A stretch of DNA of 64,000 nt from Bacteroidales bacterium UBA1176. Its GTDB lineage: Bacteria; Bacteroidota; Bacteroidia; Bacteroidales; WCHB1-69. A model generated the notes under the pieces. That model had not been told where the DNA came from and ran no database searches. It saw nothing but the letters and a program-made list of their open reading frames with translations. Below, piece by piece: positions 2,572 through 18,304 of this stretch. The stretch lies in assembly GCA_002311645.1 (NCBI GenBank), contig DBYW01000035.1, forward strand, positions 26,306-90,305. The letters run 5' to 3'. The translations under genes and the position numbers were made by a program. Within the stretch, counting starts at the first letter, position 1; each line of letters opens with the position of its first letter.

Positions 2572-3693
2572 TTAGAATGACGGGCACTTGAGATCCTTGA
2601 TGGCCTTGCGTTTCTTGGGGCAAGGCAGGAGCAGTTGGAGGGAGACCTCGTGGCTGCCACCGGTAGTGGCGCTGGCCAGTCTGCTGATAGTCAAATCATA
2701 GGAATACGCGATCTTGAACATGTTGTATTCAAGCCCGAACATGAAAATAAGAGCATCGGTGTTAAACGCCTTGGAGATTTGCATTTGTGGGATACCAAGG
2801 GTGTCTCTCACGATGGTGCCATTTTCGTCACGCACAAAATCGTTGTACTTGTATATGAGTCCATGACGGAACCACACACCGAGAGTGAAAGGATAGAATT
2901 TCATATAGAGGCCCTCGTTGAAATAATTGAAGCCCAGTTGGTGTTCGAAGATGAAATTGGGGCTGATGGAGATATCGCCGAAGGAGGTCTCTTTCTTGCT
3001 CTTGCGCTTAAGGTCGAAGTTTGCACCCACGTGGGCGGTGAATTTCAACATGTCATAGAACTTGCCGTCGGCATTGCCGGTGAGGAAGCTATAGGGGGTT
3101 GAGGACGACGAGAGGCTGAGCGTTGCGATGTGCTTGGCTGCGAAGCCAAAGTACACATGCGGGGTATAGCCCAAGAATCCAAAGGAAAAGTCAAGCGTGT
3201 TAATCTGATTGATGTAGTTCCCGATATTCTCGTTGGTCGTATACACGAAACCATATCTTGGGTCGATCATGTCGCCGAAGGTGAGTTTTGTCCAGTCGAG
3301 CGATTTGTTTTGGAATGCGGCTTGCAGGGCGAAACGCATGTTGAATTTCTTGGACACTTTGACCTTGAAGGAGTACATCAGGCTTGCGTTGTAGGTGTTG
3401 AGAATGCCACCTTCGCCCGCACGGTCACCCCAGAACTGCACGCCGATACCGCCATAGATTTTGTCGAAATGCTCGTCGTATGAAGCGGCGTAAGTCAGAA
3501 ATGTGCCCGGCATTGACGGCCATTGGTCGCGGAAATTGAAAGCGAGACGAGGACATATATTCGTGCCAGCCATGGCGGGGTTGAGGAAGAGCGGATTGGC
3601 GTAGAACTGCGAAAACATGGGGTCTTGCGCCTGAACCCGCGCTGTGGACAATCCCAGCAGGGCAACCAATAGTATGAGGATTCTTTTCTGCAT
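2572..3693 (-). CDS. PorP/SprF-family T9SS outer-membrane protein
   Basis: 373 aa. A signal peptide is followed by QDPMFSQFYANPLFLNPAMAG, the hallmark N-terminus of PorP/SprF proteins. The rest is beta-rich with a C-terminal aromatic residue. Confidence 0.75.
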   Translation of the reverse strand: MQKRILILLVALLGLSTARVQAQDPMFSQFYANPLFLNPAMAGTNICPRLAFNFRDQWPSMPGTFLTYAASYDEHFDKIYGGIGVQFWGDRAGEGGILNTYNASLMYSFKVKVSKKFNMRFALQAAFQNKSLDWTKLTFGDMIDPRYGFVYTTNENIGNYINQINTLDFSFGFLGYTPHVYFGFAAKHIATLSLSSSSTPYSFLTGNADGKFYDMLKFTAHVGANFDLKRKSKKETSFGDISISPNFIFEHQLGFNYFNEGLYMKFYPFTLGVWFRHGLIYKYNDFVRDENGTIVRDTLGIPQMQISKAFNTDALIFMFGLEYNMFKIAYSYDLTISRLASATTGGSHEVSLQLLLPCPKKRKAIKDLKCPSF

Positions 3694-3716
3694 AGCGTAC
3701 TGTGTTTTATAGCGGG

Positions 3717-3724
3717 CAAAAATA
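3717..3724 (-). promoter_or_regulatory. -7 promoter element (TATTTTTG on minus strand) for the porP/sprF-like gene and gldJ
   Basis: The minus strand reads TGTATTTTTGCCCGC, 23 nt upstream of ATG 3693. Confidence 0.6.
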
Positions 3725-3737
3725 CAAAAATATTTAT

Positions 3738-3745
3738 TATGTTTG
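3738..3745 (+). promoter_or_regulatory. -7 promoter element TATGTTTG, candidate for porU
   Basis: Matches TAnnTTTG, 93 nt upstream of ATG 3839. Confidence 0.4.
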
Positions 3746-3838
3746 CAACCCTAATTTTTATAATTACGAGCACGGCAATAATCACAACGGAAAAACGTTT
3801 GGAAAATTGCACACGTGCATTTTTTAAAACAACGACAA

Positions 3839-6800
3839 ATGACGAATAAATCTTGGGCATACTGCTGCATTTTTTTTGCATTCATTCTGCAAGTATCTCA
3901 TATTCAAGGACAAAGAATCGAGAAAAAAGTGGTTCTTTCTTGGGGTGACAACATTGTCCGAACCATTTCCGAAGACGAGACACGCGAATTCCTCCATTTT
4001 GACGGAGCTGTCTATCCCCTCTCCTTTCCCACCTTGCCCTCCTATTACGAACAAATTCCGATCGCACAATTCTACGACAAGTATGACATCACGGTCTCCA
4101 ACGTCGAGTATGCGGCAATGAGCGCGAGTGACGCGGCGCTCGTGCCCGCCAACTATCACAGCCGCACTCTTGACGTACAAGCTCACTCCGCACATGCGCG
4201 CACATCCACGTACCTGATGCTGTCGTTTATCCCCATTGTGGAGGTCGGCGACGGCCAATACCGGCGGGTCGTTTCGGCAACCATAACGTTGGAAGGCAAA
4301 ACAGCCGCAAGCGGAACAACCTCTCACCACGACAGCAAAAGCCACGCCACGCAGTCTGTGCTCGCATCCGGGCAATGGTACAATTTCGCCGTAGAGAAGA
4401 CAGGCATCTACAAAGTCACTTACGAAGACCTTGTCGCAATGGGCATGCCCACGCCCATCTCATCGTCGCAGATAGCGTTGTTCGGCAATGGCGGCAAGAT
4501 GCTGCCGGAGGCTAACGCCACCCCGCGAACCGATGACCTGTTGGAACTGCCCATCACCATCGTGGACGGCAACGACGGCACGATAAACGCAGGCGACTAC
4601 TTCATCTTTTACGGCCAGTCGCCGCATTCCTGGACCTATCAACCCGACTTGCACCAGTTCTCCCACACCACCAACCTTTACTCTGATGTCTCGTGGTATT
4701 TTGTCACCTCCACGCCGGGCGTGGGATCAAAAAAACGCGTGGAAAACAGCAACGATGGGGCCTTGACCCCCACTGTCACTGTGAGCAGATACACGCATTA
4801 CGATTTTTACGAGACAGACAGCCACAATTTCGGCGAATCGGGCAAAGAGTGGTTTGGGGATGTTTTCGATGCCACCACGGAGCGCAGCTACACATTTTCC
4901 GTGCCAGGGTATGAGTCCGTGCCATCGCGGATTTCCGTGGCCGGGGCCTGCGCCTCGAGTGCACACTCCTCCATGAGCATAACCGTCAACGGCACCAGCG
5001 CGGGGAGTCTGCACTTCCCCTCCATCAGCGGCAACATTATTGCCACCATGAGCCGTAATGATTTCACCTTCACGCCAAGTTCCTCAACCCTAAACGTAAC
5101 ATTGAGCTACAGTAAGCCGACCACCTCCTCCGCAGCTTACCTCGACTGGATTGAGATTGAGATTCCATGCCGGCTGACGATGCATTCGGCGCAGTTTCCA
5201 TTCTGCAACACCAGCACCGTGGGTGCCGGCAGCGTCACGCGATTCAACATTGCCAACGCGAACGGAAACACTGTGGTTTGGGATGTTACGGACCCTTCGC
5301 GCACCACGCGCCAGGTGCTCACGCAAGACAACGGCCAATACGGATTCACCGTCCGCACAGACTCCCTGCGCCACTTCTATGCCTTCAACGGCACATCCTA
5401 CCTCAGTGTGACACGCGGCGGTGCCGTCGAGAACCAGAACCTGCATGCCACGGGCAATGTGGACATGGTGATTGTCACCCATTCCAAATTTCTCGCACAA
5501 GCCAACGAATTAGCCAAGTTCCGTCGCGAAAACGACGGCCTGTCCGTCCATGTGGCCACTATCCAGCAGGTATACAACGAATTTTCCAGCGGCTCGCAGG
5601 ATCCCATCGCCATCCGCGACTATATGAAGATGATCTACGACCGCAGCAACAAGCAATACCCCAAATACTTATTGTTGGTGGGCCGGCCTTGTTACGACTA
5701 TCGGGGCAGGGTCAGCGGCACCGAGATTTTCGTGCCAAACTATCAAGGGCACTCCGACGGCAGCACCATTTCCGAGATCAGTTTCTACGCCAATGACGAC
5801 GCTTTCGGCCTACTCGACGACGAGGAGGGAAACTCCACCTACGGACTTTACGACATCTCCATTGGCCGTTTCCCGTGCAGCACGGTCTCACAAGCCCGAA
5901 ACGCCGTGGAAAAGAGCATCAACTACACACAGCACAAGAGTTTAGTGAGTGAAAACGCCACGCAGATTTCCAATTTCGGAGACTGGCGCAACATGATGGC
6001 TTTCGTGGCCGATGACGAAGAGTACAACGACTTCCTTTCCAATGCGGACAATTTCTCGACTATTGTGAAAAATACCAACCCCAACATCAACTTCGACAAA
6101 ATCTACTTGGATGCCTTCCAGCAAATTTCCAATGCAGGCGGGCAGCGTTACCCCGATGTCACGGCAGCCATCAACAACCGCATGAACCGTGGTTCGCTGT
6201 TTTTCACCTACATCGGGCACAGCGGCAAAGACGGCTGGGCTGCCGAGCGCATTATCGAGAACTCCGACATCAACCGCTGGAACAACAAATACAACTTGCC
6301 GGCGATGTTGACGTTGTCTTGCACATTCGGTTTCTACGACCGGCCTGTGCTTTCGCCTGCGGACATGGTGCTGTTCAGCGGGATCGGCGGCGTGAGCGCC
6401 ATCATCACGGCCACACGCGAGGCATGGTCGTCGCCCAACAACGCCTACGGACGCCACATCTTCAACACAATGTTCTCCACCACGGACGGGCACTACCCAA
6501 CCATCGGCGACATAGAGCGACGCGCCAAGAACTCATACGGCGGCAATTCCACCTCGTTGGCCATGTTCGTACTTTTAGGGGATCCCTCCATGCCATTGGC
6601 CATCCCCCAATATCGCATCGTCACCGACTCTATCAACCACAAAGCGGTCGGAGAGCAACAAGACACTATACGCGCACTCTCCCTGATGAGCGTCAGTGGA
6701 CGTGTTGTCGACGAGAACGGCCAGACCCTCACGAATTTCAACGGCTCGGTGTACCCCTCCGTCTACGACAAGGCCGTCACCGTGACGACTCTATCCAACG

Positions 6801-7687
6801 ACCCCAGTAGTCCACCATTCGACTTCCAGCAACAAAAAAGCATCCTCTTCAAGGGCAACAACAGCGTGAAAGACGGTCGTTTCAGCTTCTCCTTTTATGT
6901 GCCCAAGGACATTGACTACGACTACGGCGCGGGCAAAATCAGCTACTATGCATGCAGTCAGAACCAAGATGGCGCGGGTGCATTTACGGAATTCATCATC
7001 GGCGGCACCGACACCAACGGCGTGGACGACAAAGAGGGGCCCACCATCGAGCTCTATCTCAACGACGAACAGTTTGTCAACGGCGGTATCGTAAATCCCG
7101 ACCCCACTCTTATCGTCAAGGTGCATGACAACTTCGGCATCAACACCACGGGCAACGGCATCGGACACGACCTCACGGCCATCCTCGACAACGCCTCCGA
7201 ATCGCAAATCGTGCTCAACGACTATTTCCAGAACGACAAGGACAGTTCCAATTCCGGCACGGCACGCTATAGTCTCAACGACCTTGCCGTCGGCAAACAC
7301 TCCCTGCTGGTCCGCGCCTGGGATATCAACAATAACCCTTCGGAAAGCACCCTCGAGTTCGAGGTTGTTTCCGACACAAAGCTGACACTCAGCCATGTGC
7401 TCAACTACCCCAACCCCTTTACCACGCACACCGACTTCTTCTTCGAGCACAACCAAAACGGCGGGCTTTTCGATATCCAGGTACAGATTTACACCATCTC
7501 GGGCAAACTCGTCAAAACCATCACGACTTCACAGTATCTGGAGGGCAACCGCAGCATGGCCATCCCCTGGGACGGCCTCGACGACTATGGCGACAAGATT
7601 GGCAAGGGTGTCTACATGTACAAGTTGCGCGTCCGAAACAGCGAAAATGCAACAGCCGAAGTTGTGGAGAAGCTGGTGATTTTGTAA
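3839..7687 (+). CDS. porU: T9SS C-terminal-signal peptidase PorU (C25 gingipain-like)
   Basis: ATG at 3839; the track ORF begins at an upstream GTG at 3815. 1282 aa. His and Cys blocks YIGHSGKDGW and LTLSCTFG are present. It has its own C-terminal CTD (LNYPNPF...GVYMYKLRV) and is followed by porV. Confidence 0.85.
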   Translation: MTNKSWAYCCIFFAFILQVSHIQGQRIEKKVVLSWGDNIVRTISEDETREFLHFDGAVYPLSFPTLPSYYEQIPIAQFYDKYDITVSNVEYAAMSASDAALVPANYHSRTLDVQAHSAHARTSTYLMLSFIPIVEVGDGQYRRVVSATITLEGKTAASGTTSHHDSKSHATQSVLASGQWYNFAVEKTGIYKVTYEDLVAMGMPTPISSSQIALFGNGGKMLPEANATPRTDDLLELPITIVDGNDGTINAGDYFIFYGQSPHSWTYQPDLHQFSHTTNLYSDVSWYFVTSTPGVGSKKRVENSNDGALTPTVTVSRYTHYDFYETDSHNFGESGKEWFGDVFDATTERSYTFSVPGYESVPSRISVAGACASSAHSSMSITVNGTSAGSLHFPSISGNIIATMSRNDFTFTPSSSTLNVTLSYSKPTTSSAAYLDWIEIEIPCRLTMHSAQFPFCNTSTVGAGSVTRFNIANANGNTVVWDVTDPSRTTRQVLTQDNGQYGFTVRTDSLRHFYAFNGTSYLSVTRGGAVENQNLHATGNVDMVIVTHSKFLAQANELAKFRRENDGLSVHVATIQQVYNEFSSGSQDPIAIRDYMKMIYDRSNKQYPKYLLLVGRPCYDYRGRVSGTEIFVPNYQGHSDGSTISEISFYANDDAFGLLDDEEGNSTYGLYDISIGRFPCSTVSQARNAVEKSINYTQHKSLVSENATQISNFGDWRNMMAFVADDEEYNDFLSNADNFSTIVKNTNPNINFDKIYLDAFQQISNAGGQRYPDVTAAINNRMNRGSLFFTYIGHSGKDGWAAERIIENSDINRWNNKYNLPAMLTLSCTFGFYDRPVLSPADMVLFSGIGGVSAIITATREAWSSPNNAYGRHIFNTMFSTTDGHYPTIGDIERRAKNSYGGNSTSLAMFVLLGDPSMPLAIPQYRIVTDSINHKAVGEQQDTIRALSLMSVSGRVVDENGQTLTNFNGSVYPSVYDKAVTVTTLSNDPSSPPFDFQQQKSILFKGNNSVKDGRFSFSFYVPKDIDYDYGAGKISYYACSQNQDGAGAFTEFIIGGTDTNGVDDKEGPTIELYLNDEQFVNGGIVNPDPTLIVKVHDNFGINTTGNGIGHDLTAILDNASESQIVLNDYFQNDKDSSNSGTARYSLNDLAVGKHSLLVRAWDINNNPSESTLEFEVVSDTKLTLSHVLNYPNPFTTHTDFFFEHNQNGGLFDIQVQIYTISGKLVKTITTSQYLEGNRSMAIPWDGLDDYGDKIGKGVYMYKLRVRNSENATAEVVEKLVIL

Positions 7688-7813
7688 AACCGACGCATAG
7701 GTCGCCTATATAGATCATTTTTTTGAAAAAAATTTTTTCTGTATAAAAATAAAGTTAGAAATCACACGTTACCATCTTTTGTGTTAAAGAAAAGAGAAAC
7801 GTACATCATCGAC

Positions 7814-9088
7814 ATGAAAAAGAAAGTTTTCCTCCCAGCACTGATCGTGCTATTCACTATCTCACAGCAACTTAATGCTCAATCCATTAATCCGAGCCAG
7901 CTTGGCGGCAAGGAATTGAACACCATCACCACGGCAGTGCCATTCCTCAATATTGCGCCCGACTCGCGCGCTGGCGGCATGGGCGACATGGGCTGCGCCA
8001 CCTCCGCCGACATCAACTCGCAGGCATACAACCCCTCCAAATACGTCTTCAACAAGAACACCTTCGGTGTCAGCGTCTCCTACAGCCCTTGGCTGCGCAA
8101 TTTAGTCAACGACATCAACTTAGCCTATCTCAGCTCCTACTGGCGCATTACAGAAATGGATGCCATCGCCTTTTCGCTGCGTTATTTCTCGTTAGGTGAC
8201 ATCCAGTTCACCGACGACCAGGGAAATATGATTTCCGAGCAGAATCCCAACGAGTTCGCTCTCGACTTCACCTACTCACGCAAGTTGGTGGACCATTTTT
8301 CGATCGCGTTGACACCCCGTTTCATTTATTCCAACCTCACAGCCGGCCAATACGTAGCGGGTGAGGAGACCAATGCAGGTCTTGCAGGCGCTGCCGACCT
8401 TTCCTTCTTCTACGAGCAGGATTTCAAAGCGAAAAACCTGGAAAGCAGCACATTGCGTGCAGGTTTATGTATTTCCAACATGGGTAACAAGATGTCCTAC
8501 TCTTCGGGAACGCTTCGCCGTGACTTCCTGCCCACAAACTTGCGCCTCGGTTTAGGCTACGAAATGGGCTTCGACAGCTACAACAAGCTGGCCATCACAG
8601 GCGAAGTCAACAAGTTGTTAGTACCGACAAACCCCGTGTACGCCACCGACTCCATCACGGGACGCATCTTATACGACGAATATAACAACCCGATCATCCT
8701 GTCGGGCAAGGATCCGGACGTCTCCGTGCCACAGGGCATGATCCAATCCTTTTACGACGCCCCGGGCATCGGACAGAACGGTGCCACCGGCAGCGTCTTC
8801 CGCGAAGAAATGGCCGAAATTGCATGGGCGTTGGGTGCGGAGTACAGCTATCGTGACCTCTTCTTTGTGAGACTCGGATATTTCCACGAGAGCAAATACA
8901 AAGGCAACCGCCAGTTCCTCACCATTGGCGCAGGCATCAAATACAACGTCTTCAACATCGACGTGGCCTATTTGTTCACCACCAACGGACAGAAGCACCC
9001 ATTATCCAACACGCTGCGCTTCACCCTCTCCTTCGATTTCACATCCTTCAACAAGGACGAGATCAAACAACAAGGCCGTCTCCGCTAA
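7814..9088 (+). CDS. porV: T9SS outer-membrane shuttle/channel protein PorV (LptO)
   Basis: ATG at 7814 gives the signal peptide MKKKVFLPALIVLFTISQQLNAQ. The motif TAVPFLNIAPDSRAGGMGD is present. 424 aa, barrel-like. Confidence 0.85.
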   Translation: MKKKVFLPALIVLFTISQQLNAQSINPSQLGGKELNTITTAVPFLNIAPDSRAGGMGDMGCATSADINSQAYNPSKYVFNKNTFGVSVSYSPWLRNLVNDINLAYLSSYWRITEMDAIAFSLRYFSLGDIQFTDDQGNMISEQNPNEFALDFTYSRKLVDHFSIALTPRFIYSNLTAGQYVAGEETNAGLAGAADLSFFYEQDFKAKNLESSTLRAGLCISNMGNKMSYSSGTLRRDFLPTNLRLGLGYEMGFDSYNKLAITGEVNKLLVPTNPVYATDSITGRILYDEYNNPIILSGKDPDVSVPQGMIQSFYDAPGIGQNGATGSVFREEMAEIAWALGAEYSYRDLFFVRLGYFHESKYKGNRQFLTIGAGIKYNVFNIDVAYLFTTNGQKHPLSNTLRFTLSFDFTSFNKDEIKQQGRLR

Positions 9089-11698: not shown

Positions 11699-13462
11699 CT
11701 ATTTCACAACAATTTTCTTCGTAACACTGTTGTTCACACGCACCATGTATGTGCCGACAGACCAGTTGCGGACATCCACATCGTATTCGCTTTCCATTCC
11801 TTTTGCAGACCACACCATTTTGCCATTCATGTCGAAAACCTCGACGCAATTGATTGCATCGCCAGTGACTTTCAAATAATCAGAGGCAGGATTGGGATAG
11901 AGAGAAATGTGCATGATCTGGTTTTCGTCAATACCGACAGTGTGGAATGAGACAGAGACATCAAGGACATTCTCTTGATTGGTGATATCATTGGAATAGA
12001 GCGCAATGTGGGCTGTCTTGGTACACTCGGCAGGATGATCCGGGTTGACAAATGTTATGGTCTCCGTGACTTGTCCGCCCGCATTGATGGTGCCAGACGG
12101 GGAGGAAACGGTTATCCAGGGTTCGATGGGGGTGCCGTCGACAATGGCGGAAAGCATCCAGTTGCCTGTAAGGTCGGGATTGCCATTGAGTTCATTCCAC
12201 GCCACACCCGTCTTGTACCAGTTGCCATACGGATGTGGTGTGACGGCGTCGTCGAGCCCGATGGAGGGAAGGGTAGTTTGCGTCGGATCCTGCTCATAAT
12301 AGATGCCGAACCAGAAATCGCGACCGTTCAGCACGTATGGAGTGGTGAGATTGATTGTATTCACGCCCTCCACAGGGACAAAATTCTGTTCATAGACCAT
12401 ATCGCCAGGGCCATCGACCAAAATGCCTCCCATGTCGTAGATGCGAATCTTAGCAACGTTTATATAGTCGCTATTATTGATGGACACATTAATGGCATTG
12501 ATTTGCTTGCCTACCAGGTCCATGGACACGACCTCCTCGGCGGTGAATCCTGCGGCCACCTGGATAGCTTCCGTGTTGTTGAAGAGCACACCCGTGTACT
12601 CCGTTCCGGCGCGGGTAAGCTCCTGCGATCCCGTTGACGTGGTGTTGGGAGTGAACTCGTAATACGGCACCAGGCGATAGTTGACGGGAGCGCCGCCAGG
12701 ATTGCTCAGCGTCAGGGCATAGGTGCCTGTTGCGGCATTGTCCACCGTCACATTGATGTCGCTGGTCGGAGAGAAGGAGAACTGCCCGTCATTGGCCGAG
12801 GTGATCTCCGTAAAGACAAAATTGTCCACATAATAGGTTCCTGTTGCATTGTTGGGAGCTCCCGCATAAAAATTGATGGAACCCAACTGGTTGATACCGT
12901 TTGCGCTATTGGATTCGTTGGAGAAAGGCCATGACTGCACCACCACATTGTTGACAGTCATCGTGATGAGATCCTGGTCAAGATCAATGTGAGCCTTGAC
13001 GTGGAACCAGGCATTGTTGGGCATTGTGAAGTTGTAGGTCGTGCCAGCCACGCTGAAATAACCAGTTCCAGAGGTGGTGAAATAGCATTCGAACGCCCAT
13101 TGCACGCCCGGGTTGTAGTAGTGCTGGATGTTGAAATAGGCACCACTGCCGGTGGTCGGGACATAGTAGTCGAAATCAACATCGAACACACCCGTGGTCT
13201 GATTGGAAAACCGGTAGATGATGTCGTTGGTACCGGTCACCTTCAAGGAGTTGGAGCCACTGGAGGCCTGTTCCGTGGAGATGACGGCATCCTCGGCCGT
13301 GCCGGGAGCATTGCTCCACGTGGTCCAGTCCGTGTTGTTCTGCGAGCAGAGTTGCTGTCCAGCCGTGTAGGAATCGAAGTTGTCACTGAAGACAACGGTC
13401 TGCGCCTGCAATGCGGCCATCATACCGCACATCAGACATACAAAAAATAAAAATTTCTTCAT
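11699..13462 (-). CDS. Secreted protein with T9SS type-A C-terminal sorting domain (probable lectin/LamG-like N-terminal domain)
   Basis: The signal peptide is MKKFLFFVCLMCGMMAALQAQ. The C-terminal ~75 aa LYPNPASDYLKV...GTYMVRVNN...KIVVK matches the Por secretion tail. An alternative ATG lies at 13471. Confidence 0.7.
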   Translation of the reverse strand: MKKFLFFVCLMCGMMAALQAQTVVFSDNFDSYTAGQQLCSQNNTDWTTWSNAPGTAEDAVISTEQASSGSNSLKVTGTNDIIYRFSNQTTGVFDVDFDYYVPTTGSGAYFNIQHYYNPGVQWAFECYFTTSGTGYFSVAGTTYNFTMPNNAWFHVKAHIDLDQDLITMTVNNVVVQSWPFSNESNSANGINQLGSINFYAGAPNNATGTYYVDNFVFTEITSANDGQFSFSPTSDINVTVDNAATGTYALTLSNPGGAPVNYRLVPYYEFTPNTTSTGSQELTRAGTEYTGVLFNNTEAIQVAAGFTAEEVVSMDLVGKQINAINVSINNSDYINVAKIRIYDMGGILVDGPGDMVYEQNFVPVEGVNTINLTTPYVLNGRDFWFGIYYEQDPTQTTLPSIGLDDAVTPHPYGNWYKTGVAWNELNGNPDLTGNWMLSAIVDGTPIEPWITVSSPSGTINAGGQVTETITFVNPDHPAECTKTAHIALYSNDITNQENVLDVSVSFHTVGIDENQIMHISLYPNPASDYLKVTGDAINCVEVFDMNGKMVWSAKGMESEYDVDVRNWSVGTYMVRVNNSVTKKIVVK

Positions 13463-13532
13463 AACATACAATTTTAGTTTGACATTAGTTTTGCTTATTT
13501 TCTTGTTTTAACCTTTTTTACAAAAGATGCCG

Positions 13533-13540
13533 CAAACATA
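13533..13540 (-). promoter_or_regulatory. -7 element (TATGTTTG on minus strand) for the CTD-protein gene
   Basis: CAAACATA on the plus strand, 61-70 nt upstream of the start. Confidence 0.45.
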
Positions 13541-13635
13541 CATAATTTAATCCATACGCGCAAGGGCTAACCGTGAAAAAAAGTTAAAAAACATCATTGT
13601 TCCACAACACTCCCCTGCTATATCAGGGAAAAAAG

Positions 13636-13643
13636 TATTTTTG
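13636..13643 (+). promoter_or_regulatory. -7 element TATTTTTG for the lipoprotein-rSAM operon
   Basis: GGGAAAAAAGTATTTTTGCC, 16 nt upstream of ATG 13660. Confidence 0.6.
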
Positions 13644-13659
13644 CCAAAATTTAAAAACA

Positions 13660-14067
13660 ATGTTGTCAAAACTAAAAGAGAAGAAAAGAGCGTGGAAACG
13701 CGCCTTGTTCGGCTCCTTCGCCGCCACATCCGTCATGTTCACTTTCTGCGCCTGCTACGGCATGCCAAAGGAATACATTAATTTAGATGAAATAAGCGGT
13801 ACGGTCGTCGATGCCGAGACCGGCAGTCCCGTAGCTGGAGTGCAGGTGCAGTCCAGAGGGTTGATAGATGCCATCACCGACAGCACCGGCTATTTTGTCG
13901 ATTCCACCGACAGGACTGTGGATTCATGGCAGCCGATAGACTTCGCCGTTCGCGACATTGACGGTGCCGAGAACGGAATCTATGAAGACTTGGACACTTC
14001 CGTACTTGCTGCCGACCTTCTCTCACCCCTGCATTTGCAGGTCAAGCCGAAACACGATGACCGATAA
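13660..14067 (+). CDS. Radical-SAM-associated putative lipoprotein (carboxypeptidase-regulatory-like fold)
   Basis: ATG at 13660 lies 16 nt after a -7 promoter element. 135 aa with signal plus lipobox (MFTFCACYGMP) and ISGTVVDAETGSPVAGVQVQ. Its stop overlaps the rSAM gene start by 11 nt. Confidence 0.65.
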   Translation: MLSKLKEKKRAWKRALFGSFAATSVMFTFCACYGMPKEYINLDEISGTVVDAETGSPVAGVQVQSRGLIDAITDSTGYFVDSTDRTVDSWQPIDFAVRDIDGAENGIYEDLDTSVLAADLLSPLHLQVKPKHDDR

Positions 14068-15109
14068 AAGGCCTCTCAGGCGCTGGCTGTTCCGCAGTTT
14101 CAGGAAAAACGAGACGGAGATCCACGAGCTGAACTATCTCTTTTGGGAGTGCACATGGCGCTGCAATCTCTCGTGTCGCCATTGCGGATCCGACTGCAAG
14201 GCGGACGCCATAGCATCCGACATGCCCTTCCAAGACTTCCTGAGAGCCATCGAGCCTTTGGAACAGCGCTATCCCCGCGACACGGTCATCATTGCCATCA
14301 CAGGTGGGGAGCCGCTGTTGCGCCCTGATTTGGCGGAATGCGGACGGCAGTTGCGAGAGCACGGTTTCCGCTGGGGTATCGTTTCCAACGGAATGTTGTA
14401 CGATGAATCTCGTCACCGTGAACTCTTAGCGGCTGGTCTCAACTCCGTCACCATCAGCTTGGACGGACTTGAAGAGACGCACAACTGGCTGCGTGGCAAC
14501 CTGCAGAGTTTCCAGCGAGCCTTAGCCGCCCTCAAGCTCATCGCCGCCACCCCGCAGCTCGCCTACGATGTGGTGACCTGCGTACATCCCCGCAACCTGT
14601 CGGTCCTGCCAGCACTCAAGGAGATCCTCCTCGCCAACGGCATCCAGCACTGGCGCTTGTTCACCATCGCCCCCATCGGACGCGCCACACAAGACGACAA
14701 CCTGCAACTTTCCCGCCCGCAAGTCGAACAGATGCTGCAATTCATCGCCGACACCCGCAAGGAGGGGCACATCGACCTTTCATTCAGTTGCGAGGCCTAT
14801 ACGGGCAAATACGAGGAAAACATCCGTAACAGCTACTTCTTCTGCCGTGCTGGAATCAACATCGGCAGCGTCCTGATAAACGGTGACATCTGCGCCTGCC
14901 CCAACGTGAACCGTTCCTACGTGCAAGGCAACATCTACCACGACAACCTCCTGGATGTCTGGGACAACAGATTCCAGGTCATGCGCGACCGGCAATGGAT
15001 GAAACGCGGTCCCTGCGAGCATTGCAAGGAGTTCAAGCAATGCCTCGGCGGAGCCTTACACCTCCGCCCAAATCCAACAAGCGACATATTAAGATGCTAT
15101 CGTTTCTAA
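14057..15109 (+). CDS. Radical SAM / SPASM-domain enzyme (lipoprotein-associated family)
   Basis: ATG at 14057. 350 aa. The CxxxCxxC motif is CNLSCRHC. The C-terminal Cys cluster (FFCRAG...GDICACP...CEHCKEFKQC) is typical of SPASM/twitch auxiliary clusters. Confidence 0.8.
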   Translation: MTDKRPLRRWLFRSFRKNETEIHELNYLFWECTWRCNLSCRHCGSDCKADAIASDMPFQDFLRAIEPLEQRYPRDTVIIAITGGEPLLRPDLAECGRQLREHGFRWGIVSNGMLYDESRHRELLAAGLNSVTISLDGLEETHNWLRGNLQSFQRALAALKLIAATPQLAYDVVTCVHPRNLSVLPALKEILLANGIQHWRLFTIAPIGRATQDDNLQLSRPQVEQMLQFIADTRKEGHIDLSFSCEAYTGKYEENIRNSYFFCRAGINIGSVLINGDICACPNVNRSYVQGNIYHDNLLDVWDNRFQVMRDRQWMKRGPCEHCKEFKQCLGGALHLRPNPTSDILRCYRF

Positions 15110-15170: not shown

Positions 15171-15178
15171 TACTTTTG
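15171..15178 (+). promoter_or_regulatory. -7 element TACTTTTG for mini-lipoprotein A
   Basis: Preceded by a T-run, 38 nt upstream of ATG 15217. Confidence 0.5.
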
Positions 15179-15216: not shown

Positions 15217-15444
15217 ATGAAAAAAATTATTTGCGTATGCGCTGCCTGCCTCATGATGGCGGCCCTCACAACCTCCTGCAACAAAAGATGCGAATGCAAG
15301 TCCTACCTCGCCGGACATGTGACCACGACGGAATTCGATCTTGACAAAGACAACTACAAAAAATGTTCCGACATGAACATTACCACGACAGAGATCAACG
15401 GCACCATCATGACGGGCATGGAATGCCGGAGTGTTTTGTTTTAA
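15217..15444 (+). CDS. Cys-patterned mini-lipoprotein, paralog A
   Basis: 75 aa. Signal plus lipobox LTTSC. Cys at 21, 25, 27, 50 and 70. Own TACTTTTG promoter. Confidence 0.6.
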   Translation: MKKIICVCAACLMMAALTTSCNKRCECKSYLAGHVTTTEFDLDKDNYKKCSDMNITTTEINGTIMTGMECRSVLF

Positions 15445-15481: not shown

Positions 15482-15515
15482 CCGCGAATTTAGTACTAAC
15501 TTAAAAACCTTAAAA

Positions 15516-15755
15516 ATGAAAAAATTAATGGCTATTTGCGCTGCAACTTTGATGTTGGCAGCTGTTGCAAGCTCTTGCAGCAAGATTTGTACCTGCACTG
15601 TTGAATACGGTATTGGTGGCAGTACTGTGTCTACCACTCTTAATGACATTGACCTGAAAGGCACCAGTTACAAGAACTGCAACGCTTACGGTGATGCTTT
15701 GCAAGCCACCTACAACATGTACAGCGATGTCAAAATTGACTGCAAGAAACAATAA
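15516..15755 (+). CDS. Cys-patterned mini-lipoprotein, paralog B
   Basis: 79 aa, starting at the internal ATG 15516. Signal plus lipobox VASSC. Cys at 21, 25, 27, 55 and 76. It has a strong promoter cassette upstream and a hairpin terminator downstream. Confidence 0.65.
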   Translation: MKKLMAICAATLMLAAVASSCSKICTCTVEYGIGGSTVSTTLNDIDLKGTSYKNCNAYGDALQATYNMYSDVKIDCKKQ

Positions 15756-17131: not shown

Positions 17132-18304
17132 ATGAAGGGGAAAGAAAACAAACCGCATATCGGCATTTTTGGACGGCGCAACAACGGCAAGAGTTCGCTC
17201 ATCAATGCCATCACGGGGCAGGAGACGGCCATCGTGGACGCCACCGCCGGCACCACCACCGACCCTGTGCGCAAGTCCATCGAGATTTTCGGCATCGGCC
17301 CTGTGGTGCTTATCGACACTGCCGGCATCGACGACGAAGGTCCCGTCGGGCAGAAGCGCGTGCAGAAGTCGATGAACGTGCTCACGACCATAGACTTTGC
17401 CCTGATAGTCATCACCAACCGCGAGTTCGGTGCACCCGAACAGATGTTAACGGAAAAGCTCCGACAGTATGACATTCCCTTCCTGATGGTGAACAACAAG
17501 GCCGACCTGCCACAATCCCCTGAAGAGGTCACCCTGCCCTGTCCGGTCATCGACGTGAGCGCCAAGACGGGCGCAGGTATCGAGGACATGCTCGCAGAGA
17601 TGGTGCGCCTCATGCCGCCGTCGGCTTATATTTCGCACTCGCTGCTCGGTGACATCATCGACGAAGGCGACACCGTGGTGCTGGTCACGCCCATCGACTC
17701 CGAAGCCCCAGAAGGACGACTCATCCTGCCGCAGGTGCAGCTCATCCGCGACGTGCTTGACAACGACGCCGTGGCGGTAGTGCTCAAGGAGGACAAAGTA
17801 GGCGATTGGTTGAAATGCAATCCCGCACCGCGCCTCGTGGTCACCGACAGCCAGATGTTCGCGCGCGTAGCCCGGGACGTGCCCGAGGAGGTGCCGCTCA
17901 CGGGCTTCAGCATCGTGCTTGCCCACCACAAGGGAGCTTTCGAGCAATACCTGCAAGGCACCCCCCACCTTGACAAGCTCCAAGACGGGGACCGCATCCT
18001 GATGTTGGAGTCGTGTACCCACCTCACCTCGTGTGAGGACATCGGGCGCGGCAAGTTGCCCCGCTGGATACGGCAGCACACAGGCAAAGAGCTCCACTTC
18101 GACTTTGTGACGGGCCTCGATGCCCTGCCCGATATCGGCCAATATGCAATGGTCATCCAGTGCGGGGGCTGCATGGTGACACGACGCCAACTCCTCAACC
18201 GCCTCAAGCCCGCCATCGACCGCGGCATCCCCGTCAGCAACTATGGCATGACGATTGCCTACTTGAACGGCATCTTCGACAGAGCGGTGAAGGTTTGGAG
18301 ATAA
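17132..18304 (+). CDS. hydF: [FeFe]-hydrogenase maturation GTPase HydF
   Basis: 390 aa. P-loop GRRNNGKSSLINAITGQ. The C-terminal cluster region reads CTH...QCGGC. It starts 21 nt after the rimO stop. Confidence 0.75.
   Translation: MKGKENKPHIGIFGRRNNGKSSLINAITGQETAIVDATAGTTTDPVRKSIEIFGIGPVVLIDTAGIDDEGPVGQKRVQKSMNVLTTIDFALIVITNREFGAPEQMLTEKLRQYDIPFLMVNNKADLPQSPEEVTLPCPVIDVSAKTGAGIEDMLAEMVRLMPPSAYISHSLLGDIIDEGDTVVLVTPIDSEAPEGRLILPQVQLIRDVLDNDAVAVVLKEDKVGDWLKCNPAPRLVVTDSQMFARVARDVPEEVPLTGFSIVLAHHKGAFEQYLQGTPHLDKLQDGDRILMLESCTHLTSCEDIGRGKLPRWIRQHTGKELHFDFVTGLDALPDIGQYAMVIQCGGCMVTRRQLLNRLKPAIDRGIPVSNYGMTIAYLNGIFDRAVKVWR

Follow-up and report, generated by a model that had tools for sequence, protein, structure and literature searches.

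A conserved pair of a radical SAM/SPASM enzyme and a lipoprotein-like partner in Bacteroidia: an invariant Tyr-Gly motif and a possible tyramine-splicing maturase

The gene pair described here lies in a stretch of 64,000 nucleotides, below called the window, from Bacteroidales bacterium UBA1176 (contig DBYW01000035.1, assembly GCA_002311645.1, positions 26,306 to 90,305), and consists of a gene for a putative lipoprotein followed by a gene for a radical S-adenosylmethionine (SAM) enzyme with a SPASM domain; all coordinates are those of the window. The first gene (13660..14067, + strand, ATG to TAA) encodes a protein of 135 aa, beginning MLSKLKEKKRAWKRALFGSFAATSVMFTFCACYGMPKEYINLDEISGTVVDAETGSPVAGVQVQ, that we call the partner and propose as the substrate of the enzyme. 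The second gene (14057..15109, + strand, ATG to TAA) encodes an enzyme of 350 aa belonging to the TIGR04133 family, and its start overlaps the stop region of the partner gene by 11 nt in a different frame (14057..14067, + strand). In the family alignment, the N-termini of the enzyme homologues align to the Met encoded at 14057. The radical SAM [4Fe-4S] motif CNLSCRHC (C36-x3-C40-x2-C43; 14162..14185, + strand) is invariant in this alignment, and the SPASM region (14789..15097, + strand) contains seven invariant Cys residues, C245, C263, C281, C320-x2-C323-x5-C329, and C347. C279, part of the string CAC, is not conserved, and the usual fourth Cys of the SPASM Cx3C motif is replaced by Ala333. 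A preliminary description of this DNA had reported the two open reading frames (ORFs), the 11-nt overlap, CNLSCRHC, and the C-terminal Cys cluster, and all of these sequence statements hold on re-reading.

The preliminary description had also given the pair its own promoter, the string AAAAAAGTATTTTTGCC at 13629-13645. This string holds TATTTTTG (13636..13643, + strand), a match to TAnnTTTG that ends 17 nt before the ATG of the partner gene. We take TAnnTTTG to be the -7 promoter consensus of Bacteroidota. It occurs 40 times in the window, compared with 25.7 expected, and none of 100 shuffles reaches 40. Further copies at 15171, 15474, 15802, and 18331 on the + strand each lie just 5' of one of the next four gene starts, another is found at 13533 on the - strand, and many start codons in the window have a copy 17-50 nt upstream. 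Judged from the DNA sequence, this distribution is consistent with Bacteroidota-type promoters and very short leaders. The motif scan of the window found no TAnnTTTG between the partner and enzyme ORFs. Because the upstream gene lies on the opposite strand, the pair needs a promoter of its own; the motif string proposed for it is present, and the promoter itself is a predicted one, identified by its match to the consensus.

The enzyme can be assigned to a family with confidence. It scores 473.5 bits against TIGR04133 (E 3.4e-142; residues 10-348 aligned to model positions 8-345 of 350), above the curated cut-off of 425, so the assignment made in the preliminary description was correct in this hidden Markov model search. 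Pfam recognises Radical_SAM (61.4 bits) and SPASM (26.9 bits, residues 263-324) above threshold, and homologues of the enzyme carry the Joint Genome Institute source label 'radical SAM enzyme (rSAM/lipoprotein system)'. When one genome of each species was scanned, relatives of the enzyme proved to be encoded in at least 594 stretches, and 80 loci were kept, which come from Bacteroidales, Marinilabiliales, and a few termite-gut metagenome-assembled genomes (MAGs) labelled Treponema or Spirochaetia. The pair had been called restricted to Bacteroidota; this is mostly so, with the exception of the several loci in the termite-gut MAGs, if their binning is as labelled. A search with a partner profile found a homologous ORF beside the enzyme gene in 80 of 81 loci, nearly always directly upstream on the same strand. 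The high score to TIGR04133 and the retention of the pair in 80 other species indicate that both genes are real and not chance ORFs. In 64/70 loci, the distance from the partner stop to the enzyme start falls in the range from -14 to +4 nt, which makes translational coupling a conserved property of the system. In two loci (L077 and L078 in our numbering), the partner is adjacent but divergent. The 420-bp spacer between partner and enzyme in L077 (~620-1240) translates to repeated, nearly identical peptides in several frames, which points to tandem DNA repeats between the two genes. L006 is the only locus without a partner (enzyme at 6158-7222), and at the partner's place it has two small ORFs of 148 and 108 aa with a toxin-antitoxin-like look (5281-6001, - strand).

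The preliminary description had inferred from the coupling a relation between an enzyme and its substrate or partner, and this inference is strengthened by the obligate adjacency, by the conserved overlap, and by the way in which conservation is distributed along the partner (see below). A survey of the neighbourhood for recurrent third components, which it had proposed, returned none: when all neighbouring ORFs were clustered across the loci, no conserved third gene was found, and the next real cluster occurs in at most 20 loci. Clusters that seemed to represent a third gene were rejected, since they consisted of ORFs lying antisense within the enzyme gene or reflected synteny confined to a clade. 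The same clustering found no dedicated protease or transporter gene conserved beside the pair.

This adjacency bears on one alternative, that the enzyme is a generic anaerobic sulfatase-maturating enzyme (anSME) that acts on distant substrates, with the lipoprotein gene beside it by accident. Anaerobic sulfatase maturases act in the cytoplasm on unfolded, Sec-exported sulfatases, and they resemble our enzyme in being minimal SPASM radical SAM enzymes (~350-370 aa, with a SPASM domain and without a RiPP recognition element, RRE; RiPPs are ribosomally synthesised and post-translationally modified peptides). They are also detectable structural relatives of it, as anSME structures are found with E values of ~2e-6 (1.9e-6 for the PDB match). 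However, the sequence relation is distant, and no anSME family model appears among the 25 best NCBIfam matches of the enzyme, which instead passes the cut-off of TIGR04133. Whereas anSMEs serve many unlinked substrates with the target motif C/S-x-P/A-x-R, the enzyme gene has a partner beside it in 80/81 loci with a conserved overlap, and the window partner lacks this motif. We therefore regard the sulfatase-maturase explanation as scarcely credible.

The partner protein starts MLSKLKEKKRAWKRALFGSFAATSVMFTFCACYGMP, and its residues 1-31 (13660..13752, + strand) form a Lys/Arg-rich N-region and a hydrophobic helix of the type found in lipoprotein signal peptides. They are followed by C32-Y33-G34-M35-P36 (13753..13767, + strand), which combines the lipobox Cys with an invariant Tyr-Gly and is the proposed modification site (X-Y-G), and by a transthyretin-like or CarboxypepD_reg-like beta-sandwich covering residues 39-128 (13774..14043, + strand; AlphaFold predicted local distance difference test score, pLDDT, ~90). 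Lipoboxes were called with our own version of a rule of the PROSITE PS51257 type, {DERK}(6)-[LIVMFWSTAG](2)-[LIVMFYSTAGCQ]-[AGS]-C with a K or R in the first 7 residues. The window partner satisfies this rule with its Cys at position 32, as checked by hand, and is thus a predicted lipoprotein, as are 74 of the 89 members of the partner family; Tyr is at +2 in 67. Among 84 unique partners derived from the loci, Tyr and Gly (positions 0 and +1) are the only invariant residues of the motif (84/84). Position -4 is Phe or Met, position -3 is Gln in 61/84, position -2 is Ala in 71/84, position -1 (X) is Cys in 66/84 (79%) and otherwise A, E, K, M, L, I, or G, position +2 takes many residues (T, M, A, P, S, V, I, D, Q), and position +3 is Pro in 72/84 (86%), so that the usual context is F-Q-A-C-Y-G-x-P after a helix resembling a signal peptide. 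When X is not Cys, a Cys is found 2-14 residues upstream instead, apart from four sequences without any upstream Cys. An independent set of partner-length clusters from a library of 1.84 billion proteins, restricted to full-length matches of 120-250 aa, gave the same picture: Tyr-Gly is present in all 60 representatives at 50% identity, and FQACYG in 51/60, which brings the diverged partners with the dipeptide to about 150. The preliminary description had not mentioned the Tyr-Gly, and it is this invariant dipeptide that points to a specific chemistry.

Of the 21 invariant columns of the partner alignment, 11 fall within the first 36 residues, so that the signal-peptide-like region is better conserved than the folded domain, which is unusually high conservation for a region of this kind. 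In the AlphaFold model, a helix of residues 2-33 ends at Cys32-Tyr33 and is joined by a short linker to a confident beta-sandwich. Foldseek relates this domain to the transthyretin-like domain of carboxypeptidase D and to the N-terminal extension (NTE) domain of SusC, and Pfam gives weak matches to PF13620 and PF13715 (CarboxypepD_reg-like). The beta-sandwich is a generic module, and through it the partner profile also draws giant repeat proteins from the 1.84 billion proteins. Many rumen Bacteroidales have peptide-sized partners of 58-78 aa, in which the signal peptide and CYGxP are kept and an acidic tail replaces the beta-sandwich. Such partners lie directly upstream of the enzyme in L008, L010, L012-L015, L017, L019, L020, L024, L026, L029, L032, L037, L057, and L067, and their tails are highly acidic and of low complexity. 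Several loci contain two partner genes or two YGxP motifs within one partner, and in L026, L011, and L023 a short or variant copy stands beside a long-form copy. Partners without a lipobox Cys are found in L025 (3690-4386; ...LIHAAYGMREPD) and L036 (5541-6321 and 6321-7011; ...VHAGYGQRQPD), with two beta-sandwich domains; those of L036 are in tandem copies. In the Spirochaetia-labelled MAGs, the motif reads IHAAYGM and VHAGYGQ. The partners without Cys in MAGs labelled Spirochaetaceae or Spirochaetia reflect either misbinning or a horizontal transfer in which the lipoprotein signal was exchanged for a signal of another kind.

The preliminary description had placed the partner in TIGR04134. The match is significant (28.7 bits, E 1.1e-6), but it stays below the curated cut-off of 39.8, and we therefore file the window partner as a divergent relative of TIGR04134, not as a curated member, on the basis of its sequence. 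To the TIGR04133/TIGR04134 'rSAM/lipoprotein system' the window pair corresponds in having a lipoprotein-like partner that is adjacent and co-oriented; it departs from the curated TIGR04134 model in that its partner is of the majority 'FQACYG' subtype. Scoring seven partners from other species showed why: the model fits a minority 'ACDSKDEYGTPS' subtype (lipobox AC, then DSKDE-YGTPS) at 119 bits, while majority 'FQACYG' partners, including that of the window, reach 28-44 bits, and four of the partners from other species are at or below the cut-off (0-38 bits). Most partners scored lie near the cut-off or under it, and the curated model thus under-detects the major partner subtype. The one short-form partner tested gave no score at all, so short-form partners would not receive the family name from TIGR04134. 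[quoted passage not shown]

Taken as a whole, the invariant short motif, the conserved N-terminal helix, the dispensable C-terminal part, and the multiplied partner genes make the partner look like a RiPP-type precursor rather than an accessory protein. The opposite possibility is that the partner is a membrane-anchored accessory, such as an anchor, chaperone, or sensor, and that the substrate of the enzyme is some small molecule, for example a tetrapyrrole or lipid, in the manner of AhbD/NirJ or Tes. The best NCBIfam matches of the enzyme outside its own family do include AhbD (heme b synthase, 116.8 bits), NirJ2, and NirJ, and its nearest solved structures, BlsE and tetraether synthase, are small-molecule or lipid enzymes. 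Nevertheless, the AhbD/NirJ-type scores are far below the cut-offs of those families (117 vs 500), and no tetrapyrrole or lipid genes are conserved near the pair in the clustering of neighbouring ORFs. In addition, what is conserved in the partner is mostly a short linear motif together with the signal peptide, not the folded domain, this domain is dispensable, and partner genes are duplicated beside one enzyme gene. An exported partner would also be separated by the membrane from an Fe-S enzyme of the cytoplasmic type, which has no RRE domain, no signal peptide, and no hydrophobic signal at its N-terminus. An accessory role of the partner is thus improbable, and the Tyr-Gly region of the partner is very probably the substrate of the enzyme.

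A conserved X-Tyr-Gly on a precursor encoded next to its enzyme is what spliceotide systems need, and it is present here. Researchers have found that spliceases act on X-Y-G motifs (PMC11414181, PMC11626197, PMC9811515), and most known types are two-gene systems without an accessory Y protein, in which a leader helix activates the enzyme (PMC11414181, PMC9811515, PMC11626197, PMC10533398). The survey of Scott et al. 2022, as cited in PMC10533398 and PMC10849128, predicted 939 splicease systems in 189 genera, which might include this family; the citing papers that we consulted name no Bacteroidota or lipoprotein type. The authentic plp locus was reached by way of PlpA3 and its genomic surroundings. 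PlpX is encoded there at 10754-12013 of L081, and its 824 bits to TIGR04103 verify it as a family member. PlpX is the closest functionally characterised enzyme that we compared with the window enzyme. It scores 147.6 bits over the full length of TIGR04133, rank 5 among the NCBIfam families, and 120.5 bits with our own enzyme family profile, and in BLASTP the window enzyme and PlpX are 24% identical across 329 residues (E 2e-27). The best score of this profile to a solved structure is 67.8 bits (BlsE), followed by 39.6 for PqqE and 30.3 for anSME, so PlpX is far closer to the enzyme family than any structurally solved SPASM enzyme. A PDB sequence search found no splicease structure and no close relative. 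The core of PlpA2, ...RPLYGLPI, reads X-Y-G-x-P, with the same spacing as CYGMP of the window partner. Thus, the pair shares with PlpX and with the two-component RhaX/RasX systems a radical SAM/SPASM enzyme without an RRE, an X-Y-G precursor, a two-gene organisation, and an N-terminal precursor helix. It differs from them in that its leader is a lipoprotein signal peptide and not a leader of the Nif11 type or the nitrile hydratase-like leader peptide (NHLP) type, that there is a single site located at the signal-peptide junction, and that no peptidase-containing ATP-binding cassette transporter (PCAT) is present.

The second precedent concerns the route of the product. In 2026, the DAG-RiPPs were shown experimentally to be precursors with signal peptidase II signals that are first modified in the cytoplasm by a multinuclear non-heme iron-dependent oxidase (MNIO), then triacylated by the housekeeping lipoprotein pathway, and found in vesicles (PMC13056109). 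That study mined MNIO neighbourhoods only, with chryseobasin-like DybA and NedA as examples (PMC13056109). The preliminary description had considered it an unusual maturation route for an exported lipoprotein to be the substrate of a cytoplasmic enzyme; the DAG-RiPPs provide a precedent (PMC13056109). Anaerobic sulfatase maturases, whose sulfatases are Sec-exported, are another. Our pair likewise combines a precursor with a predicted signal peptidase II signal and a cytoplasmic modifying enzyme encoded beside it. Bacteroidota are prominent hosts in both cases, peptide-sized and protein-sized substrates both occur, and no dedicated protease or exporter is needed, so that the lack of a conserved protease or transporter gene beside the pair fits the export logic of DAG-RiPPs. 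The differences are that the DAG-RiPP maturase is an MNIO iron enzyme in every member characterised so far while the enzyme of our pair is of the radical SAM/SPASM type, and that the modified motif is C-terminal in DAG-RiPPs while the proposed one abuts the lipobox Cys in the partner.

We propose, with a probability of about one half, that the pair is a self-contained precursor-maturase cassette for a radical-SAM 'RiPP-lipoprotein' modified at Tyr-Gly, with tyramine splicing as the most likely chemistry. Because the enzyme is an Fe-S protein without a signal peptide, it would have to act in the cytoplasm before Sec export. After translation, it would bind the N-terminal helix of the partner as a leader or activator and modify the C-Y-G-x-P site, most likely by a splicease-type reaction in which Tyr33 of X-Y-G loses a tyramine unit. 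The lipoprotein pathway would then lipidate Cys32 and cleave off the signal peptide, and the product would be a lipid-anchored protein with the modification beside its anchor or, in the short-form species, an acidic lipopeptide of ~40 residues. The assignment of the reaction to tyramine splicing specifically is tentative, and we place it somewhat below even odds, as it rests mainly on the substrate motif. That the TIGR04133 enzymes form an unrecognised, Bacteroidia-wide class of spliceases, excising tyramine from the Tyr after the lipobox Cys, is a possibility on the doubtful side.

Several points weigh against this proposal. We found no experiment on the TIGR04133/TIGR04134 family, and NCBIfam of June 2026 assigns it no function. 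The enzyme falls outside the PlpX family, as it scores 94.4 bits against TIGR04103 with a cut-off of 725, and AhbD, NirJ, TIGR04053, and MftC are equally close to it. Its auxiliary-cluster Cys residues are also unlike those of PlpX, with Ala333 at the place of the Cx3C Cys and the extra upstream Cys245. For these reasons, the similarity of the enzyme points to a subgroup and not to a reaction. The AlphaFold model of the enzyme does not separate the chemistries either, because a fold search returns generic radical SAM/SPASM neighbours and the pLDDT is 65 in all Fe-S regions. The single YG per protein is a short motif that could serve another purpose, for example lipoprotein sorting. Moreover, we know of no precedent for a ketoamide on a residue that must undergo lipidation and cleavage by signal peptidase II.

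The strongest alternative keeps the pair and the Tyr-Gly site and changes the radical chemistry to a cross-link, a Cys-Tyr thioether, an epimerisation, or a beta-hydroxylation. A cross-link might be a C-C or ether bond from Tyr33 to a neighbouring residue, in the form of a three-residue cyclophane or a Tyr reaction like those of PqqE/MftC. When the SPASM region is compared alone, its nearest families outside its own are the peptide maturases MftC (which modifies Tyr), GeoRSP, the KxxxW cyclase, and WgkB, all of them cross-linking enzymes, and for the enzyme as a whole several families are at least as near as the splicease family. In the partners, a Cys adjoins Tyr in 79% and +3 is Pro in 86%. 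Only three Cys make up the auxiliary cluster I site, and in CteB a three-Cys site of this kind binds the substrate Cys. However, only Y and G are invariant; with a Cys that changes its place or is absent and a variable +2 residue, there is no conserved residue to which Tyr could be cross-linked. A strict requirement for Tyr-Gly is, to our knowledge, described for spliceases only (PMC9811515, PMC11414181), and no radical SAM chemistry other than tyramine splicing is known to us to need this dipeptide. We consider another chemistry at the same site rather unlikely.

The other genes around the pair in the window (PorP, PorU, PorV, a peptidyl-dipeptidase, two small lipoproteins, RimO, HydF, and GcvP) are housekeeping or T9SS genes and are unrelated to it. 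A T9SS cluster just upstream, at 2572-9088, comprises PorP/SprF (- strand), the PorU sortase, and PorV, and after a Dcp-like M3 peptidase, 11699-13471 (- strand) encodes a cargo protein of 590 aa that carries a C-terminal sorting domain of the T9SS. This gene is retained in the close relative L082, and the association of T9SS genes with the pair is not kept in more distant species. Downstream, two paralogous Cys-rich putative lipoproteins of 75 and 80 aa (MKKIICVCAACLMMAALTTSCNKRCECK... and MKKLMAICAATLMLAAVASSCSKICTCTVEYGIGG...) are encoded at 15217-15444 and 15513-15755 (+ strand). Each has its own TAnnTTTG box, the second holds EYG and AYG, and neither has an NCBIfam match. They were considered as the true substrates and rejected, because they are not conserved beside the enzyme elsewhere. 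HydF, the [FeFe]-hydrogenase maturation GTPase (17132-18304, + strand; 473 bits), is flanked by RimO and GcvP, which both exceed the cut-offs of their own NCBIfam families.

The rSAM/lipoprotein pair has been in family catalogues for over a decade without an assigned function. That it is a family catalogued in TIGRFAMs/NCBIfam is thus already known; new in this work are the invariant Tyr-Gly, the partner subtypes including the peptide-sized forms, the under-detection by the curated model, and the hypothesis that joins splicease chemistry with the DAG-RiPP route, that is, two recent discoveries, tyramine-splicing radical SAM enzymes and RiPPs of the lipoprotein pathway. The analysis narrows the uncharted chemistry of a pair widespread in anaerobic Bacteroidia to one testable Tyr-Gly site. 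If the proposal is true, modification by a radical SAM enzyme right beside the Cys that receives the lipid would add a new variant and a new enzyme class to the DAG-RiPP route. No DAG-RiPPs made by radical SAM enzymes and no lipoproteins with beta-amino acids would have come before these products, which may also act as protease inhibitors carried by membranes or vesicles. With its two genes, the pair would also be a new, compact means of introducing beta-amino acids. Bacteroidia that are abundant in the gut and rumen would then make lipid-anchored proteins and peptides with an electrophilic ketoamide beside the anchor, which would bear on envelope biology, the cargo of outer-membrane vesicles, and the inhibition of host or competitor proteases.

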